From: Patescibacteria group bacterium | GTDB lineage: Bacteria; Patescibacteriota; Patescibacteriia; SG8-24 | Assembly (NCBI GenBank): GCA_041667185.1 | Contig: JBAYFM010000002.1 | Location: 23,432 to 87,431, forward strand | Direction of reading: 5' to 3' | Length of the DNA stretch: 64,000 nucleotides | In this document: piece after piece, positions 22,846-31,320 of the stretch | Layout: each line of letters begins with the position of its first letter | How positions within the stretch are numbered: position 1 is the first letter of the stretch | Notes under the pieces: generated by a model | Database searches by the model: none | Told to the model about the DNA's origin: nothing | What the model saw: the letters and a program-made list of their open reading frames with translations, nothing else | Made by a program: the position numbers and the translations under genes

Positions 22846-22925
22846 TAACGTCAGTCAGTCTAAGCCAAAAATGTGCAATTCTTAGGCAACCCGCGGGCAA
22901 CCGAATACGTTATCTAATCAATTTA
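22846..22925. repeat. Copy 1 of an ~80-bp direct repeat that brackets the R-M module (pairs with 27000-27078)
   Basis: cgtcagtcagtctaagccaaaaatgtgcaattcttaggcaacccgcgggcaaccgaatacgttatctaatcaattta versus tgtcagtcagtctaagtcagaagtgtacaattcttgggcaacccgtgggcaaccgaatatattgactaatttaata. About 85% identity, same orientation. Confidence 0.7.
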
Positions 22926-23498
22926 CGAACCAAGAGTCTCTAAAGGATTGTCAGAAATCTCTTCTGCTGTAAAACGTTCATTTGATGCCAAAAAAAACAT
23001 CTGCAAATTTTTGGGTACAAATATCTTTTGTTTCGGCAACTTAATGTGGTGTCTGTAGAGATTGAGGGTCTCAGAAAACAAGTCGTCGAGTATCCTCAAA
23101 CTCCAGAGGCAATCAATGCTTAGTCCGCTCTCTCCAAAACGTGTTGAATCATAAATTTTTGTCAGTTCATTCAAAAAGTCTTTCTTTTGGGAGTCATCTA
23201 GTATCTTTTTGTACTCCGGAATATATGGAAGCGCCCTGCGCATCAACCCGACTAAATTATGTCCTCGCACAAAGTTATCGATATCCTTTCCCGTCGACTC
23301 TTTAATCTCCCTCCAATATATTCGAAGGGCTGCCTTAATACATGATTCCAAACATTGTTGTGCCAATAAACAACCTGTGTCGCAAAGACCCTCAATCAAA
23401 CCTACTCGTGCCAAAATATATGCCTCGCGAGCATTCCTGACTGCGAGCAAAAAAGCAAATATTTTTGTGTCCGGCCCATTCTTCAGTGGTTTTTCCAT
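22923..23498 (-). CDS. HEPN-like helical protein (putative; defense-island context)
   Basis: 191 aa, low GC. All-alpha composition with an R-x4-6-H-like motif (VRGHNLVGLMRRA). It sits directly upstream of the restriction endonuclease gene on the same strand. Confidence 0.4.
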   Translation of the reverse strand: MEKPLKNGPDTKIFAFLLAVRNAREAYILARVGLIEGLCDTGCLLAQQCLESCIKAALRIYWREIKESTGKDIDNFVRGHNLVGLMRRALPYIPEYKKILDDSQKKDFLNELTKIYDSTRFGESGLSIDCLWSLRILDDLFSETLNLYRHHIKLPKQKIFVPKNLQMFFLASNERFTAEEISDNPLETLGS

Positions 23499-23602
23499 AA
23501 CCGCCCCTTTTCTTTTCTAAATCATTGCTGGTATTACTTGAGCAATTCTTGGTCAACCGATGGTCAACCGGACCGGGAAATAACGCGGCTAGGATTTATA
23601 CG

Positions 23603-25012
23603 TCAATTCGATTGCGAGGCTGCTACGATATCTGCTATGAATTTCCTATTTAACCAGAAGCATTTCCTCACATACCTCTTCCCGTCTGGAGCGATGTCTG
23701 TGTCTGCCGCATTACGTGCATGTGGTCGGACATGACAGACCGGGCTCTCGGATTCACGGGGTAAATCATCTATTCTTCCCGCCTTGATCATCTTCACTGT
23801 TTTCTCCCAGACCTTTTTTACCTCGCCCTCAAGGGCGTCTGTCGGCATTGTCCAAAACAATACTTTTTTCAGGACCAATCGACCCGACTCATTCCTCTGG
23901 AAGACGACGAAAAAGAACCGCTGCTGAAATAAGCGTCTTAAATCTGAGTCATCCCAAGTCTGCGCGATGAGATCATTGTAGCGAAATGCGGGGAAAGACA
24001 TGGATTCCTTTGGTGCCCCATGCCGCTCTAACCTGATGGTTTTCATCAGTACTCCTGCCTTTTCGAACTCTTCGATCTTCTTCTTCCGAACACCCAAAAT
24101 AGCTCTCGTGAGGACTGCGATGTAATTTTTTGCGCTCGGATCAAGGATCAACTGCAATTCCGCGTTGATCTCATCAGTGGTCATCCCGATGAATGTCTTG
24201 AATCGTCTGGCGATATATTCCTCGAAGGTCTCGCCGCCCCTATAGGCATTAGAGGCCTTAACGGCTGGCTCCAGCTCTTTCCGTGCGAGCCTCGGGGCCA
24301 GTAGCCGTTCCAATATCGTTGTCACGTATGGCTGCTTGAGGGTCAGCGATCGCTGTTTGGCGTCAGGCCCACGAGGTTGTTTTCTCAACTTCGAGCCCTT
24401 CTGACCAGAGGTGGCGGCACCAAGATACAAGGTATCACCTTCTGATATCTCGTGTGCCCTTCCACCCCTCACCTTCTCGACGATCAGATTCCAATCATCC
24501 CGTATGATCTTCAGGTCGCCGTCGGGATAATCCCAGAGATGTGCGAGCCTGATGAGCGCATCACGATAATCAAAACCTGTCGGTCGGGAACCCCTGCGGT
24601 CTCGCAGGTAAGCGACCAGCAGGAGAAGGGCGTTCTTCTTCAAGAACGAGCTCGTCTCCCATTCTTCAGTGGCCATTTGCTCATAGTCTATGCTGCCCAA
24701 CTTGATCCGCTCCCCCGCGACCAGTTTGTTGTTCTTTCGCTGGTCGATGGGAAAGGACTTCAGCTCCACCCCTGCTTCGGTGAAGTCCGGCGCTGAAATG
24801 TTTCCTGGCGATATCTTGAAGTAATATTCTTCAAGGTCCTGACCAAAACCACCCTTCCCGGCACGTTTCGTGTCAGGAAGGTCAACGGCAATCTTTTCCC
24901 TGAGGCTATGCCCGAGAAGTTCTTGCGCGTAAGCTTCTATTGATTTTGGATCGGTTTGATCGTAATTCATATGTCTGATACGATTATGACGGATGTGGAT
25001 AAGTTCGTCCAA
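23603..25012 (-). CDS. Type II restriction endonuclease of the Sau3AI/MutH family
   Basis: 469 aa. N-terminal KRAGKGGFGQDLEEYYFKISPGNISAPDFTEAGVELKSFPI is collinear with the MutH/Sau3AI catalytic core (KGW-GQLLE...PDF...GIELK). The long C-terminal domain is consistent with the Sau3AI allosteric domain. Paired with an adjacent C5-MTase and Vsr. Confidence 0.7.
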   Translation of the reverse strand: MDELIHIRHNRIRHMNYDQTDPKSIEAYAQELLGHSLREKIAVDLPDTKRAGKGGFGQDLEEYYFKISPGNISAPDFTEAGVELKSFPIDQRKNNKLVAGERIKLGSIDYEQMATEEWETSSFLKKNALLLLVAYLRDRRGSRPTGFDYRDALIRLAHLWDYPDGDLKIIRDDWNLIVEKVRGGRAHEISEGDTLYLGAATSGQKGSKLRKQPRGPDAKQRSLTLKQPYVTTILERLLAPRLARKELEPAVKASNAYRGGETFEEYIARRFKTFIGMTTDEINAELQLILDPSAKNYIAVLTRAILGVRKKKIEEFEKAGVLMKTIRLERHGAPKESMSFPAFRYNDLIAQTWDDSDLRRLFQQRFFFVVFQRNESGRLVLKKVLFWTMPTDALEGEVKKVWEKTVKMIKAGRIDDLPRESESPVCHVRPHARNAADTDIAPDGKRYVRKCFWLNRKFIADIVAASQSN

Positions 25013-25081
25013 TGGCGAAGTTGATCTTCTGTCGATGACCGTCTATAATGATATGGCTATGTTCACCAGTAATACTCTCTT

Positions 25082-26497
25082 ATGATCAAGGGCAAGAAAA
25101 GCAACAAGATCCTCCGCGCAGCAGAATTATTCGCTGGTGTCGGCGGTTTCCGCATCGGACTCGACCGAGCGTCGTCCAGGAACAAACGGTTCGAGACTGT
25201 CTGGGCCAACCAGTGGGAGCCGTCGTCAGGCAAGATACAGCACGCGGCCTGGGTTTACGAACAAGCGTTCTTCAGGTCGCGAGACAAGACGGAGGCCGAG
25301 ATGAAGAAAGGATTCTCTAACATCGACATCAACAAGGTCGTGAACAGCGATGTGAGCATCGCCGACGACATTCCCCCGTTCGACCTGTTGACCGGCGGCT
25401 TTCCCTGCCAAGACTATTCGGTGGCTCGTCCACTCAGCCAGGCCGCCGGACTCAAGGGCAAAAAAGGTGTCCTCTGGTGGAGCATCTATGAAATCCTGCG
25501 GCACAGGATAGACTCTTCGAAGGAAGGGCCTGTCCCCTACCTGTTCCTGGAGAATGTCGACCGTCTCCTGAAATCTCCGGCATCGAATCGGGGGCGCGAT
25601 TTCGCCATCATGCTTTCGACATTGTCCGAACTCGGCTATGTGGTCGAGTGGCGTGTGATAAACGCTGGAGAGTACGGCCTGCCCCAACGCCGTCGTCGCA
25701 CTTACATAGTCGGCTACCACAAGACGACCAGGTTGGCCCAGGAGGCCAGAGCGGCCAAAAATCATCTTGAGTGGGTGCTGCGGAGCGGTGTCGTCGCCAA
25801 AGCCTTCCCGGTGGAGAAGACGTTCGTGCGCGGCGGATTCTTTGGCCTGTCGACCAGACCAGAGGACATCACGAAGCGCTTCGTCCCGCTGGACCCGGAG
25901 GTAGACGTGGATTTCTCCGCTCCATTCCAGAATGCCGGTCTGATGATTGAGGGACGGGTCCATACCGCCAAGACCTCGCCCGTCTTCCATGGCAAACCCC
26001 AGACCTTGGGTGACATCCTGCAACCAGAGGATACGGTTCCGAAGCAATTCTATATCCCTGCGTCAGAGGTAAAGAAATGGGAGCAGCAGAAGGCGGCGCA
26101 TCGATTCGAGAGGACTCACAAGGACGGGCATAAGTATCTGTACGTCGAAGGCAGGCTCCCCTTCCCTGATCCGTTGGATAAGCCCTCGCGCACGATCATA
26201 ACCAGCGAAGGAGGCCGGTCATCATCGCGGTTCAAACATGTCATCGGCGTGCGACAGCGCCCTGGATATCCCAAGGGCCGCACTATCGACGGACAGACTT
26301 ACCTGTACAGACGACTTACGCCGATAGAATTAGAGAGACTCTGCATGTTCGAAGATGACCACACCAGACTGATGTTCAATCCTCTCAAACAGGAGATCTC
26401 TGAGGTGCCGGATACGAAAAGAGCGTTCTTCATGGGGAACGCCCTCGTGGTCGGAGTCATCACCAAGATAGGCCGGGAACTACTTAAACGAGTCTGA
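25082..26497 (+). CDS. DNA (cytosine-5)-methyltransferase (Dcm-type; motif I FxGxG, motif IV PCQ, motif VI ENV)
   Basis: 471 aa. ELFAGVGGFRIGL (motif I), GGFPCQDYSVA (PC motif), LFLENVDRLL (ENV), and the C-terminal target-recognition/motif IX-X region (...FMGNALVVGVITKIG). Confidence 0.9.
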   Translation: MIKGKKSNKILRAAELFAGVGGFRIGLDRASSRNKRFETVWANQWEPSSGKIQHAAWVYEQAFFRSRDKTEAEMKKGFSNIDINKVVNSDVSIADDIPPFDLLTGGFPCQDYSVARPLSQAAGLKGKKGVLWWSIYEILRHRIDSSKEGPVPYLFLENVDRLLKSPASNRGRDFAIMLSTLSELGYVVEWRVINAGEYGLPQRRRRTYIVGYHKTTRLAQEARAAKNHLEWVLRSGVVAKAFPVEKTFVRGGFFGLSTRPEDITKRFVPLDPEVDVDFSAPFQNAGLMIEGRVHTAKTSPVFHGKPQTLGDILQPEDTVPKQFYIPASEVKKWEQQKAAHRFERTHKDGHKYLYVEGRLPFPDPLDKPSRTIITSEGGRSSSRFKHVIGVRQRPGYPKGRTIDGQTYLYRRLTPIELERLCMFEDDHTRLMFNPLKQEISEVPDTKRAFFMGNALVVGVITKIGRELLKRV

Positions 26498-26905
26498 ACT
26501 GTCGCGCAGCAGATCCAAGACCCTGAGCACCGCCCGCTCGGGGTCTTTTTTGATGTCATGCTCCCAAATTCTCAGCACCCGCCATCCGTGGCGTCGCAGA
26601 CCGGCCGTGTGACGCCGATCCCGTGCCCGATTCCGCTCGATCTTATCTCTCCAGAACTTCAGCCGAATCTTATGTTTCCATGCCGGGTAACGATACCCGT
26701 GCCAAAAATCTCCGTCGATGAATACTGCTATTTTATTTTTCGGCAAGGCGATGTCCGGAACCCCGAAAGCGGTGTGATAATGCCGCCGGAACCTGATACC
26801 GACTGCTGATAGTGCGCGAAACATGACCAGTTCCAACGAGGTATTTTTACCTCGAATCTTTGACATGATGATGCTCCGGACCTCTTTTGAAAACCTGTCT
26901 GGCAT
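26480..26905 (-). CDS. vsr: Very-short-patch repair endonuclease Vsr
   Basis: 141 aa. MPDRFSKEVRSIIMSKIRGKNTSLELVMFRALSAVGIRFRRHY...IAVFIDGDFWHGY...WRDKIERNRARDRRHTAGLRRHGWRVLRIWEHD is highly characteristic of Vsr. It overlaps the MTase 3' end convergently. Confidence 0.9.
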   Translation of the reverse strand: MPDRFSKEVRSIIMSKIRGKNTSLELVMFRALSAVGIRFRRHYHTAFGVPDIALPKNKIAVFIDGDFWHGYRYPAWKHKIRLKFWRDKIERNRARDRRHTAGLRRHGWRVLRIWEHDIKKDPERAVLRVLDLLRDSSDSFK

Positions 26906-26999
26906 CGGAGTAATGGTTCGAGACTAGGGCTCGAACCCATGAATCCTTAATTCTTGATCTGACCTATCGTCAGCGGAAACTTCGTCCGTCAGCACTCGT

Positions 27000-27078
27000 C
27001 AGTGTCAGTCAGTCTAAGTCAGAAGTGTACAATTCTTGGGCAACCCGTGGGCAACCGAATATATTGACTAATTTAATA
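27000..27078. repeat. Copy 2 of the ~80-bp direct repeat (pairs with 22846-22925)
   Basis: See copy 1. It carries a plus-strand sigma70-like TTGACT-17-TATCAT arrangement at its 3' end that copy 1 lacks. Confidence 0.7.
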
Positions 27079-27092
27079 TTCATTGATATCAT

Positions 27093-27824
27093 TTAGTCGT
27101 GCTCCGCAAGGGGTGCCCTGCCTGTGGATACAGGTCCGATGTCAAGACCCTCCCCGCCTAACGGCGCGTTGGGTCTTTTGATAATAGTTATATATTTTTT
27201 GATTCTTTGAGCGTTGATTGTAATATCGGCTTTGCGTTTGAATTCGATTCTAGTACTACTGCCGTGAATAAGAATCACGTTCTTTTTAGCTCGCTTCTTT
27301 ACGTGTTCGAGCAGCCCGCCGAAGTCATTATCGCTAGAAAATAAGCATAGAGTATCGAACTTGTCGGCCATCCTTGTAACATCGAGACAAAGTTCGACAT
27401 CGAAATTGCATTTTTGAATCACGATAAATCTATGTCCTTGATCATCGACTTCCGTCGTTCGTGATGTGGCTTTATCATCAGTTTGAATGTAATGGCGTAT
27501 CAGCTGGATGGGTTTTGTTATTGTCGACGAAAACTGATTCCTTGCCTTTTTAATGAGGTGGAGCGACGACGGCCTACTTTCGTCCAGGCCGTAATAGAAT
27601 AAACTTCGGGTCGAAAACCGATTTACGAATTCGCCCAGTCGATTGATGCTTACGACAATTTTTTCTTCCTCTCGTAAAGCTGCACCGGAATCATCGCGCC
27701 TATCTTTTTCGTACCAATAATTTACATTACCAAAATCAATGTACGTATAAATTCGACCCAGTTGGGTTAAATCAATGCGCAAGTCGTCTAAAATAATTTT
27801 AGTTTTTGCTTCATCAAGATTCAT
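27093..27824 (-). CDS. NYN-domain (PIN-like RNase fold) protein
   Basis: Start set at the Met that overlaps the upstream gene's stop (MNLDEAKTKII...); an earlier in-frame Met at 27863 is an alternative. NYN signatures YIDFGNVNYWY and CLFSSDNDFGGLLEHVKK, with acidic residues in VIQKCNFDVELCLDV. Low GC. Confidence 0.65.
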   Translation of the reverse strand: MNLDEAKTKIILDDLRIDLTQLGRIYTYIDFGNVNYWYEKDRRDDSGAALREEEKIVVSINRLGEFVNRFSTRSLFYYGLDESRPSSLHLIKKARNQFSSTITKPIQLIRHYIQTDDKATSRTTEVDDQGHRFIVIQKCNFDVELCLDVTRMADKFDTLCLFSSDNDFGGLLEHVKKRAKKNVILIHGSSTRIEFKRKADITINAQRIKKYITIIKRPNAPLGGEGLDIGPVSTGRAPLAEHD

Positions 27825-28339
27825 AACATCGGGCCCGACTTTTGGCTGATATGCTCGCTGCACCTAAATTCACCAAGTAATTTTAGATATTCCGACTGGC
27901 GACTAGTTTCTACCCACCCATCGGTTAATTTTCCGATGCGTTGCTCGCCGGCAATTACGCTGCACGGTGAGCAATAGAAAGCTTCGGGTGTTGCAACAAA
28001 TAACCAGGAGGGGTTCCAGCGATCGAGCAATTTGGATGCATGCGCGACTATTTGCTCAATATCAAATCGAGTCTGATATTTTACCTCGACAAGATACACT
28101 TCCTTTTTGTTACTCGAAATGAGGACAAAATCTGGGGCGTCCGAAATATTGTTTATTACTTGTTCAATCTCCACAAAATGCCGATACTGCGCCAACGTGG
28201 GCAGGGTGTGTTCGTACCCAAAAGGAATCACGGTATACCGGCCTTCCTTACGAATCATTTGCTCGAACAACACCTCGGCTATGCGACCCCGAATTAATTT
28301 GCGGGCGTAGGATATTTCGTCTGAAAATTTTTCGTCCAT
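27821..28339 (-). CDS. PD-(D/E)xK-like nuclease-fold protein (putative)
   Basis: 172 aa. APDFVLISSNKKEVYLVEVKYQTR gives D...E-V-K spacing typical of the PD-(D/E)xK core. Its stop overlaps the NYN gene start. Low GC. Confidence 0.5.
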   Translation of the reverse strand: MDEKFSDEISYARKLIRGRIAEVLFEQMIRKEGRYTVIPFGYEHTLPTLAQYRHFVEIEQVINNISDAPDFVLISSNKKEVYLVEVKYQTRFDIEQIVAHASKLLDRWNPSWLFVATPEAFYCSPCSVIAGEQRIGKLTDGWVETSRQSEYLKLLGEFRCSEHISQKSGPML

Positions 28340-28357
28340 AAATAGCTGTCAGCGCCC

Positions 28358-29311
28358 CTACATCGCTGGAGGCTCAATTTGTTTGGTCTCTGGCGTTTCA
28401 GCGGTATTTAGCGCATGAATCTTTTTGTAGTCAATCTGCAATTGCCCGCCCTGCTCTGTGGCATATGACGGTGGGTTTAGCGACAGGTGAAATTCGGCTC
28501 CGTCACCAAGTATTGCTACGAGGTCTTTGGTGGCGATAACAAGCTGAGTGTGCAGCTCGGCGTTTGCTCTCCCGTTTAGTTCCTTGATATCATTGATGAT
28601 ATTTTTAATGCGTTCTTTAAGTTCGAGATCTAACAGATTATCGATATATTTAATCAGCCCTTTTTCAGTGAATTCTTTTTCTTTTTCAAGTGCTGCCAGA
28701 CTGGCCTTATAATTTAACTCCGCACTTTTTGATTCATAATACGCCTTCTTTGTCTCCAAATACTTTATTGCGCCATCCAAACAGCCAAGAAAGTACTGAT
28801 AAGTTAAAGTACCGGCTGCTAATATTGCGTACCAATTGGTTCCTCGGTCAAAACCCGCAAATGTAAATTCGCCGTCGACGTTAAATTTTTTGAGAGTAGC
28901 GCCCAATTTAGTATTAAACGCGGTCAACTCGTCTAAGTTTGCTGTAGTTTTTGGTAAAAGTACGTTGATGATTTGCGCCGCTTGATCTTCAACAGCATCC
29001 GTAAGCATCGCATAAAATAGCGGGGCCGTTTTATTGAGCTGATCGACGTAGGATTTAAGGAACGAGAATTCGTCTTGCGGCAACAAAACTGGATTAGCGG
29101 CGGTTTTGTGAGCTTCAAGAACCTTCGCCACTGATTCACTTGGCAACTTATTCCATGACATTGATATAAACTTTTCGAGCGCAGTTGATATCTCAACAAA
29201 ATTTTCTACTTCAGAGGCTTGTCCGCCATATACGGCACGTGATTTGAGAGTAATCACGCCGACATCACTAACTACCTCTTTGATAATTTTTCGTAGTTCT
29301 CCTAATCGCAT
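28358..29311 (-). CDS. Hypothetical all-alpha protein, first gene of the three-gene low-GC cassette
   Basis: 317 aa, K/E/L-rich helical composition, no recognisable catalytic motif. 18-nt gap to the downstream PD-(D/E)xK-like gene. Confidence 0.55.
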   Translation of the reverse strand: MRLGELRKIIKEVVSDVGVITLKSRAVYGGQASEVENFVEISTALEKFISMSWNKLPSESVAKVLEAHKTAANPVLLPQDEFSFLKSYVDQLNKTAPLFYAMLTDAVEDQAAQIINVLLPKTTANLDELTAFNTKLGATLKKFNVDGEFTFAGFDRGTNWYAILAAGTLTYQYFLGCLDGAIKYLETKKAYYESKSAELNYKASLAALEKEKEFTEKGLIKYIDNLLDLELKERIKNIINDIKELNGRANAELHTQLVIATKDLVAILGDGAEFHLSLNPPSYATEQGGQLQIDYKKIHALNTAETPETKQIEPPAM

Positions 29312-30577: not shown

Positions 30578-30580
30578 ACA

Positions 30581-30600
30581 TGGCTCCGAGGCTGGGGCTC
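30581..30600 (-). repeat. 20-nt exact copy of the 3' end of tRNA-Asn (att-like direct repeat)
   Basis: tggctccgaggctggggctc at 30581-30600 is identical to 30853-30872 (CCA, discriminator, acceptor 3' strand, T-stem). Similarity stops exactly after the T-stem. The two copies are 272 bp apart. Confidence 0.6.
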
Positions 30601-30814
30601 CTCTTCCCCCGCCGCTCGGGTCTTGGGGCCCCTCGACCTCGGCAAAATATTGAAAGCCTCGGTCGAGCCGCGGTCGCCGTTGCGACCGTTCGCTGCTTCG
30701 CTGGCTTGCGGCTCACCCCAAGCCTCGTGGCTCCTCCAGAGCCCGGGTCATCCGGCGAGTGCCATTCAAGGCACTCGCCGGATGTACCCTTCTCGCCCCA
30801 GCCTCGGTACAATA

Positions 30815-30850
30815 AAGAAGAGGCGGTGCCGTATGGGCACCGCCTCTTCT
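30815..30850 (-). terminator. Strong rho-independent terminator abutting the tRNA-Asn 3' end
   Basis: AAGAAGAGGCGGTGCC-GTAT-GGGCACCGCCTCTTCTT is a perfect 16-bp stem with a U-tract on the minus strand. Confidence 0.7.
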
Positions 30851-30852
30851 TA

Positions 30853-30927
30853 TGGCTCCGAGGCTGGGGCTCGAACCCAGAACAAATGGATTAACAGTCC
30901 ATTGCTCTACCATTGAGCTACCTCGGA
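30853..30927 (-). tRNA. tRNA-Asn (anticodon GTT), CCA encoded
   Basis: Manual fold of TCCGAGGTAGCTCAATGGTAGAGCAATGGACTGTTAATCCATTTGTTCTGGGTTCGAGCCCCAGCCTCGGAGCCA. 7-bp acceptor stem, D-arm GCTC/GAGC, anticodon stem ATGGA/TCCAT with loop CTGTTAA, T-arm CTGGG-TTCGAGC-CCCAG. Confidence 0.9.
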
Positions 30928-31176
30928 ATAATGATTTCCAATGAACGCTTTAACAAATTCGCGGCCGCATCCTGACTTCAACCATTTTTCCCGTTTTCTC
31001 GCTGTTGGCCGATCTGGTGTTTCCTCGCTATAGACCATGACATATGGCCTATGGTTCTTAGTCCACCTGACGTATCCGGAATTATGTTCCTTGAGACGCC
31101 GTGCGAGATCAGAAGTTAAACCAATATATAACGTCCGATCAACCAGACTCCGTAAGACATAAACCTTGTATTCCAT
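30907..31176 (-). CDS. Small GIY-YIG nuclease-domain protein (YhbQ/UPF0213-like). Its last seven codons are the 5' end of tRNA-Asn
   Basis: 89 aa. KVYVLRSLVDRTLYIGLTSDLARRLKEHNSG fits the GIY-YIG core (Y-x-L...YIG, Arg, Glu). The C-terminal ...SEVAQW* is encoded by TCCGAGGTAGCTCAATGGTAG, which is tRNA-Asn positions 1-21. Confidence 0.7.
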   Translation of the reverse strand: MEYKVYVLRSLVDRTLYIGLTSDLARRLKEHNSGYVRWTKNHRPYVMVYSEETPDRPTARKREKWLKSGCGREFVKAFIGNHYSEVAQW

Positions 31177-31179
31177 AAG

Positions 31180-31232
31180 CAGTCCATTGCTCCCTGCCTA
31201 CCGGCAGGCAGGTACCATTGAGCTACCTCGGA
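31180..31232 (-). pseudogene. Duplicated 5' half of tRNA-Asn (acceptor 5' strand, D-arm, anticodon-stem 5' strand) with a 20-nt hairpin inserted in the D-loop
   Basis: Minus-strand TCCGAGGTAGCTCAATGGTA[CCTGCCTGCCGGTAGGCAGG]GAGCAATGGACTG matches tRNA-Asn positions 1-20 and 21-33 around the bracketed insertion. It lies immediately 5' of the GIY-YIG start. Confidence 0.6.
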
Positions 31233-31320
31233 ATATAAACGTATTCCTTGACGGGAATAAGGCTGGCCAAAGAACTGACCGAAATAGTTTAGCACAAGAA
31301 ATAAATTTGGCAACACCGGG

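Follow-up and report, generated by a model that had tools for sequence, protein, structure and literature searches.

A foreign low-GC gene block beside a Sau3AI-like restriction module in a Patescibacteria genome: a probable defense islet built from independent modules

Three short genes, here termed g1, g2 and g3, lie side by side in a 64,000-nt stretch of contig JBAYFM010000002.1 (assembly GCA_041667185.1, positions 23,432 to 87,431) from a Patescibacteria group bacterium; this whole stretch is referred to below as the window. The genes encode an uncharacterized protein (g1), a predicted nuclease of the PD-(D/E)xK fold (g2) and a predicted NYN nuclease (g3), and they adjoin a Type II restriction-modification (R-M) module. 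An earlier note on this DNA had proposed that the three products form an undescribed defense system composed of a sensor, a DNase and an RNase. Does the locus encode such a system, or has it gathered genes that each act alone? The comparative data point to the latter. With a probability of about 0.6, the segment is a horizontally acquired defense islet that accreted from independent modules rather than a three-component system. Here, g1, g2 and g3 would together make up one module, the Sau3AI-like, Dcm and Vsr genes a second and a gene for a HEPN-domain protein a third, and each of g1, g2 and g3 would be able to stand alone.

Recurrence of the three genes as a unit was assessed by tblastn and profile hidden Markov model (HMM) searches, the space covered being the genomes of 185,579 species together with 241 million metagenome records. 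No triad was found in 30 loci carrying relatives of g1, in 68 carrying relatives of g2 or in nine carrying relatives of g3. Relatives of each gene were abundant (62, 247 and 103 word-indexed matches for g1, g2 and g3, respectively) and lived apart. Within the g1 loci, tblastn gave no match to g2 or g3, and the profile HMMs recovered a single NYN gene (L011) and no g2. No adjoining g3 was observed in the 62 g2 loci of metagenomic origin, one of which contained a g1 homolog (L064); there, g2 precedes g1, the reverse of the order in the window. Given that the L064 proteins share 43% (g1) and 58% (g2) identity with those of the window, this adjacency is not a recent copy. Neither g1 nor g2 was found in the nine g3 loci, and in L075 a NYN-like open reading frame (ORF) was located 1.8 kb from g2 on the other strand. 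Apart from the window, the triad was found only in L108-L110, which showed 99.98-100% DNA identity over 6.9-9.5 kb and are the same population in other samples.

The earlier note had itself proposed a search for the triad in other genomes and had named a failure to co-occur as grounds for giving up its claim. With zero triads in ∼100 loci and each gene traveling separately, the conserved cassette by which a multi-gene defense system is recognized was not found; the three-part system does not stand and should not be pursued as one. What the three families have in common is instead their niche, variable regions rich in restriction genes, in which pairs occasionally meet. Since the gene orders and orientations differ between these meetings, they would reflect co-residency in defense islands, unlike the behavior of obligate partners.

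The three ORFs themselves were found where the earlier note had placed them, co-directional on the minus strand. A gap of 18 nt separates g1 from g2, and the stop codon of g2 and the start codon of g3 overlap by 4 nt, read in the sequence as ATGA. For g3, the ATG start was used, the ORF lister extending the frame to a GTG at 27863. Between positions 27000 and 29500 the GC content is 0.40-0.46, compared with 0.55-0.68 in the flanks; the low GC that had been reported is thus real, whereas the figure of ∼65% given for the flanking DNA is slightly overstated, the mean for the window being 0.59. GC content at third codon positions (GC3) is 0.415, 0.503 and 0.426 for g1, g2 and g3, respectively, compared with 0.70-0.84 for the sigma-70, Fic, neighboring S-adenosylmethionine methyltransferase and CAAX protease genes. 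Given this departure from host genes, the block is clearly imported and of foreign origin. No promoter- or terminator-like site was found on the coding strand inside g1-g3, and although this is a weak test, the three genes are therefore probably co-transcribed in this genome.

No named defense system matched the block, as had been claimed. The search was made with PADLOC-DB v2.0.0, DefenseFinder and systems published after 2023 lying outside its scope, and the best E values were 0.0028 (g1, with GajB, 14.7 bits), 0.011 (with AbiEii) and 0.0027 (g3, with HEC-09), all at 15.4 bits or below. The description of the block as a defense cassette can therefore be kept in part: it is defense-like, foreign and without a named match, but it is not a triad system.

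The strongest contextual evidence concerns g1. Its 30 loci were obtained by a profile scan of one genome per species. In 13 of them (L001, L002, L004, L006, L010, L011, L012, L014, L015, L016, L019, L022 and L029), g1 lies directly upstream of hsdS within a Type I R-M operon; both hsdM and hsdR were detected in nine of these loci and one or the other in the remaining four, several of the loci being cut at contig ends. The layout is hsdM, variable cargo, g1, hsdS, hsdR. The stop codon of g1 lies at most 40 nt from the start of hsdS or overlaps it, and g1 is the last gene before hsdS in all 13 cases, the cargo between hsdM and g1 including RhuM, a NYN gene, a DUF4145 gene and unknown genes. The hosts comprise Parcubacteria, Saccharibacteria, Peribacteria, Alpha- and Gammaproteobacteria and Gastranaerophilales, so that the adjacency of g1 and hsdS is fixed across several phyla. 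In eight of the 30 loci g1 lies beside other restriction or defense-like genes (other R-M systems in two, other defense-like genes in six), and in six it is alone among housekeeping or uncharacterized genes. In L013, L017 and L021 it has nothing but housekeeping genes around it, and a fixed partner is therefore not needed. By counts of loci, g1 occupies R-M-embedded or defense-island positions in unrelated genomes.

Could g1 nonetheless depend on the nuclease gene that follows it? One reading is that g1 founds a new restriction-coupled family acting with whichever restriction nuclease lies downstream, namely HsdS/HsdR, a Type IIG enzyme, GmrSD or, in the window, g2, in which case g1 and g2 would be a functional pair; both the family-wide claim and the pairing are considered unlikely. 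In this reading, a predicted RRM/ferredoxin-like sheet carrying the invariant EFHLSLNPP, INIK and WY motifs is combined with a coiled-coil insertion, and the protein could possibly be a guard set off by the inhibition of restriction or an extra subunit for recognition or regulation. A related reading makes g1 a dedicated accessory of restriction-type nucleases and g1 with g2 a two-gene restriction-like module, g1 supplying nucleic-acid recognition or regulation and g2 cleavage, with g3 an unrelated neighbor. In 15 of the 30 loci g1 immediately precedes a restriction component, which is consistent with this: to the 13 hsdS cases are added L003, with the order EcoRI-type methylase, g1, GmrSD-HNH, and L005, with the order g1, Type IIG enzyme. 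So are the recurrence of g1-g2 adjacency in L064 and the DUF2726 gene found divergently upstream of g1 in L008 and L009. However, the Type I, Type IIG and GmrSD enzymes need no g1 to be complete, g1 stands alone in the three loci named above, and the pair is absent from 61 of the 62 g2 metagenome loci and from all 30 g1 genome loci. Furthermore, the gene order in L064 is reversed, and the DUF2726 protein (L008), which had been entertained as a relative of g2, was rejected because it is not detectably related. A dedicated accessory is thus decidedly unlikely.

Two further arrangements were seen among distant relatives of g1. A DUF4917 protein precedes a g1 homolog on the same strand in three loci (L023, 109-2372; L024, 4861-6984; L025, 3499-5703), which may represent a two-gene arrangement; these homologs are 24-28% identical and derive from gut Alphaproteobacteria (two metagenome-assembled genomes labeled Alphaproteobacteria and one Candidatus Enterousia). 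In L026, a distant homolog precedes a Schlafen-like helicase.

The statement that g1 has no recognizable family was borne out, no relative being found in Pfam, PADLOC, NCBIfam, PHROGs or the PDB sequences. An AlphaFold2 (AF2) model of the protein was confident (predicted local distance difference test (pLDDT) score of 88.7, predicted template modeling score of 0.76), and a Foldseek search of the PDB with this model returned nothing below an E value of 0.5. Predicted elements comprise a strand at residues 114-118, a helix at 126-141, strands at 149-154 and 160-165 and a helix at 168-193, followed by three more long helices and a strand at 273-276. Invariant or near-invariant residues (I115-N116, D155, W160-Y161 and E273-F-H275-L-S277-L-N-P-P, the last motif being invariant) map on or beside the predicted strands. 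The model thus suggests that the functional surface is a ferredoxin/RRM-like sheet, into which a coiled coil of four helices is inserted. In addition, the N terminus, MRLGE, is invariant or nearly so in 32 of 32 aligned homologs despite 33-46% overall identity, which is unusual for an N terminus. Two other assignments were considered. A role as a transmembrane effector was rejected on the basis of a maximum Kyte-Doolittle mean of 1.05 over 19 residues, and membership of the 2H phosphoesterases, suggested by the "HLSL" motif, was dropped given a single conserved HxS motif. The label of sensor that had been attached to g1 is not supported.

An exhaustive profile search returned 532 clusters of g1 relatives at 50% identity, of which 204 matched with E values of 1e-10 or better. 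Among the 150 of the 532 clusters listed, the proteins are ∼270-350 residues long and free of fusions, shorter and apparently partial sequences aside; likewise, no Pfam domain and no fusion protein was found among ten distant relatives. Searches of plasmid, phage and IMG/VR collections gave no match to g1, which makes an origin as a phage anti-restriction protein unlikely. The family is widely distributed in Patescibacteria and in small-genome Alphaproteobacteria. To our knowledge, these groups are without most known defense systems. It is g1 that forms the useful remainder of the original proposal, as a family of ∼500 clusters without annotation or a solved structural relative. Its position directly before hsdS in Type I operons is among the most defense-predictive known, and most of its carriers are bacteria with small genomes that have not been cultured and whose immune systems have been little described. 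If active, g1 would represent a new restriction-linked defense or accessory protein, and the reach of "guilt by embedding" would then include Patescibacteria.

The assignment of g2 to the PD-(D/E)xK nucleases was upheld by conservation and by the predicted fold. Its best Pfam match, PDDEXK_11, is sub-threshold (13.7 bits against a cut-off of 23.7), matches in PADLOC and NCBIfam had E values of 0.01 or worse, and a sequence-profile search of the PDB gave no match. In an alignment of 28 family members, however, residues E22, P69-D70 and E85-V86-K87 are invariant, and the AF2 model (pLDDT of 89.2) contains the alpha-beta-beta-beta-alpha-beta core of restriction endonucleases. On the strength of this model, the protein is taken to have the PD-(D/E)xK fold. 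Compared with other small stand-alone PD-(D/E)xK nucleases, namely Hjc resolvase, the homing endonuclease I-Ssp6803I and cap-snatching/R2 endonuclease domains, g2 shows 6-19% identity, and it differs from them in having no Pfam family at threshold and no partner or specificity domain.

Relatives of g2 are ∼60% identical, and the named members are all from Patescibacteria, where the gene occurs by itself in genome regions that vary. Their contexts were sampled in six loci from two look-ups in addition to the 62 metagenome loci, and clustering of the neighbors revealed no recurrent partner. Some relatives reside on serine-recombinase/Rep elements (L034/35 and, by neighbor clustering, L064 and L067). 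One lies directly downstream of an SMODS plus AGS_C cyclase of the cyclic oligonucleotide-based antiphage signaling system type (L059, 858-2738), one directly downstream of an 880-residue DndB-like protein (L045, 1296-4459) and one beside GlmS (L051). Two locus groups that differ in gene order have g2 near a gene that matches the AAA and DNA_pol3_delta2 Pfam models. A search of IMG/VR with g2 gave no match.

The NYN assignment of g3 was confirmed. The protein matches Pfam NYN (PF01936) at 43.8 bits against a gathering cut-off of 24.2 (E value of 5e-11), and its predicted acidic site is intact (D30, N140-x-D142-x-E144 and S163-x-D165-x-D167); the four residues D142, E144, D165 and D167 do not vary in a 25-sequence alignment, and D30 varies hardly at all. 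The nine g3 loci, retrieved with five relatives, represent six distinct contexts. The NYN gene lies between Type III mod and res in L100, immediately precedes a Type IIG/ISP enzyme in L102/103 and immediately follows an N6_N4-methylase-Mrr fusion in L106/107, whereas in L104 it adjoins glycyl-tRNA synthetase, a housekeeping context; L099 and L105 were assigned to neither class. Thus, in this small sample, three of six distinct loci are R-M-embedded or adjacent, to which is added L011, where the NYN relative sits within the Type I operon between hsdM and hsdS. Two of these arrangements of R-M and NYN genes, which differ from each other (L100, 711-1754; L106, 4764-5771), both adjoin ruvB, which suggests that the ruvB side is a recurrent insertion hotspot in these Patescibacteria.

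Among known candidates, g3 most resembles HEC-09 and the LabA-like NYN proteins (PF01936, NYN.COG1432 group), with which it shares the NYN domain, the conserved acidic residues and relatives embedded in restriction-type systems; it differs in that the PADLOC HEC-09 model matches it weakly, at an E value of 0.0027 and 15.4 bits. "Guilt by embedding" is an established predictor of defense genes, and HEC-09 is an NYN candidate that was found in this way (bioRxiv 10.1101/2024.01.29.577857). The repeated embedding of g1 and g3 relatives in R-M operons supports a defense-related role for each of them individually. The closest known kind is that of the R-M-embedded candidates (HEC/PDC, Payne et al. 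2024; PrrC in Type I operons): relatives of g1 and the L011 NYN gene lie between hsdM and hsdS and a relative of g3 lies between Type III mod and res, each of them a lone gene carried within a multi-gene immune system, although the genes of the window stand beside a Type II system and not inside it, and g1 is without a recognizable enzymatic domain.

How the islet was put together may be indicated by the DNA around g1-g3 (Table 1). The Sau3AI/Dcm/Vsr neighborhood described in the earlier note was verified, all three genes being matched by profile. A 27-nt motif, GGTTGMCC-N3-GGTTGMCYAAGAATTG, has three copies in the window against zero expected, each just 3' of a module: one follows g3 and reads GGTTGCCC-ACG-GGTTGCCCAAGAATTG, one follows the Sau3AI-like gene and one the HEPN gene. 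The first and last copies lie within a 69-nt repeat, the two copies of which are 86% identical. We propose that the islet may have been assembled module by module, each module being closed by the same motif, and the motif thus hints at an assembly route. Short recombination sites delimit the gene modules of integron cassettes and dif-module arrays. The three successive modules here show a possible resemblance to these in that each ends in the same motif; the motif differs from attC in being a direct dyad and not hairpin-forming, and in being known from a single locus, since it was absent from 107 fetched loci. An attC-like hairpin in the 69-nt repeat was not supported (z-scores of -1.5 to +1.3), and no integrase, Xer protein or recombinase was present among the ORFs scanned with Pfam (∼14.4-43.6 kb).

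Table 1. Positions of the genes, repeats and tRNA-like sequences of the islet and its surroundings in the window
Feature	Position	Strand	Description
g1	28358..29311	-	317 aa, soluble, uncharacterized family
g2	27821..28339	-	172 aa, stand-alone PD-(D/E)xK-fold predicted nuclease
g3	27093..27824	-	243 aa from ATG, NYN (LabA-like, PIN-like) predicted nuclease
Type II R-M module	23603..26905	mixed	Sau3AI/MutH-like, Dcm and Vsr; adjoins g1-g3
MutH/Sau3AI-like endonuclease	23603-25012	-	E value 2.5e-29
Dcm C5-methyltransferase	25082-26497	+	E value 5.5e-48
Vsr	26480-26905	-	E value 4e-22
HEPN-domain gene	22923-23498	-	GC3 0.417, similarly low as g1 and g3
27-nt motif	27030-27056, 23543-23569, 22876-22902	-	three copies
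69-nt repeat	27004..27072	-	directly 3' of g3, contains the 27-nt motif
69-nt repeat, second copy	22850-22918		3' of HEPN gene, contains the 27-nt motif
tRNA 3'-end-like fragment	26908..26940	-	T-arm and acceptor strand ending CCA, between the g3-side motif and vsr
21-nt copy of tRNA-Asn 3' end	30580-30600		exact copy
tRNA-Asn	30853-30927		intact
GIY-YIG nuclease ORF	30907-31176	-	between tRNA-Asn 5'-half duplicate and intact tRNA-Asn
Anticodon-arm-like copy	31175-31192		
tRNA-Asn 5'-half duplicate	31213-31235		

Within such an islet, g3 would be an autonomous, metal-dependent effector cleaving RNA, and g2 a similarly autonomous, metal-dependent effector cleaving DNA or structured nucleic acid. 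The product of g1 would bind nucleic acid via its RRM-like sheet and could serve as an accessory or back-up beside restriction enzymes. PrrC acts as a back-up within EcoprrI, and g1 may perhaps do so in a comparable manner.

A different account would remove defense altogether: g1, g2 and g3 could be cellular enzymes of nucleic-acid processing or repair, with g2 resolvase-like and g3 a NYN protein of RNA maturation, or else addiction (toxin-like) modules that stabilize mobile DNA. Consistent with this, g2 is ∼60% identical across lineages and near the AAA/DNA_pol3_delta2-matching gene in two locus groups, some NYN and g1 relatives are found among housekeeping genes, and a survey of the PIN superfamily (PMC5499597) connects NYN proteins of bacteria with the processing of tRNA and rRNA. 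The same survey linked PIN-like toxins to Type I systems and did not report functional data for bacterial NYN proteins. Set against a cellular or addiction role are the foreign GC3 of all three genes, the strong association of g1 and g3 with R-M systems and the occurrence of g2 on recombinase/Rep elements and next to the SMODS cyclase and the DndB-like protein; this account is consequently regarded as quite improbable.

Several observations weigh against an islet of independent defense modules, which is nevertheless preferred here. A defense activity of g1, g2 and g3 is a prediction from sequence and context, and the level of identity among g2 relatives is more like that of a conserved cellular nuclease than of a fast-evolving defense gene. 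The sampling of g3 contexts, with six distinct loci, is thin. HEC-09 gave no protection when tested with phage (bioRxiv 10.1101/2024.01.29.577857), and membership in HEC-09 would therefore not establish a function for g3. Each pair of genes recurs once elsewhere (L064, L011 and L075), which is above the level for random genes and could hint at functional affinity. Moreover, the close packing of the genes fits one transcription unit, as do the absence of promoter- or terminator-like sites on the coding strand within the block and the boundary motif, which is single, stands after g3 and is missing between g1, g2 and g3. The 18-nt gap and ATGA overlap, the single motif and the pairwise recurrences, together with the similar GC3 of the three genes, are also what favors a genuine three-component system that is confined to one lineage or too uncommon to have been sampled elsewhere, but this is very improbable given the zero triads in the genomes and metagenome records searched, the abundant relatives, including the 532 g1 clusters, that live apart and the confinement of all other triads to the same population.

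The wider setting of the islet is chromosomal, with dnaG, rpoD and tRNA-Asn nearby and a Fic-HTH gene also among the neighbors; no Type I hsd genes are present within the window. The HEPN gene is stand-alone, the neighboring scanned ORFs being the Sau3AI-like endonuclease and an SRPBCC protein, with no partner gene identified. An Rfam scan of the region from 22 to 32 kb gave tRNA-Asn as its sole match. The tRNA 3'-end-like fragment on the g3 side of vsr was not called as a tRNA; over 21 nt (26919-26939) it is 90% identical to the T-arm of tRNA-Asn, its acceptor strand differs, and it is possibly a relic attachment site. Additional tRNA-derived sequences surround the intact tRNA-Asn gene. The ORF for a GIY-YIG nuclease lies between this gene and a duplicate of its 5' half, which is accompanied by an anticodon-arm-like copy, and an exact copy of the tRNA 3' end lies on the other side. 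The region from 30580 to 31235 resembles a scar left at the tRNA gene by a homing endonuclease or by integration.

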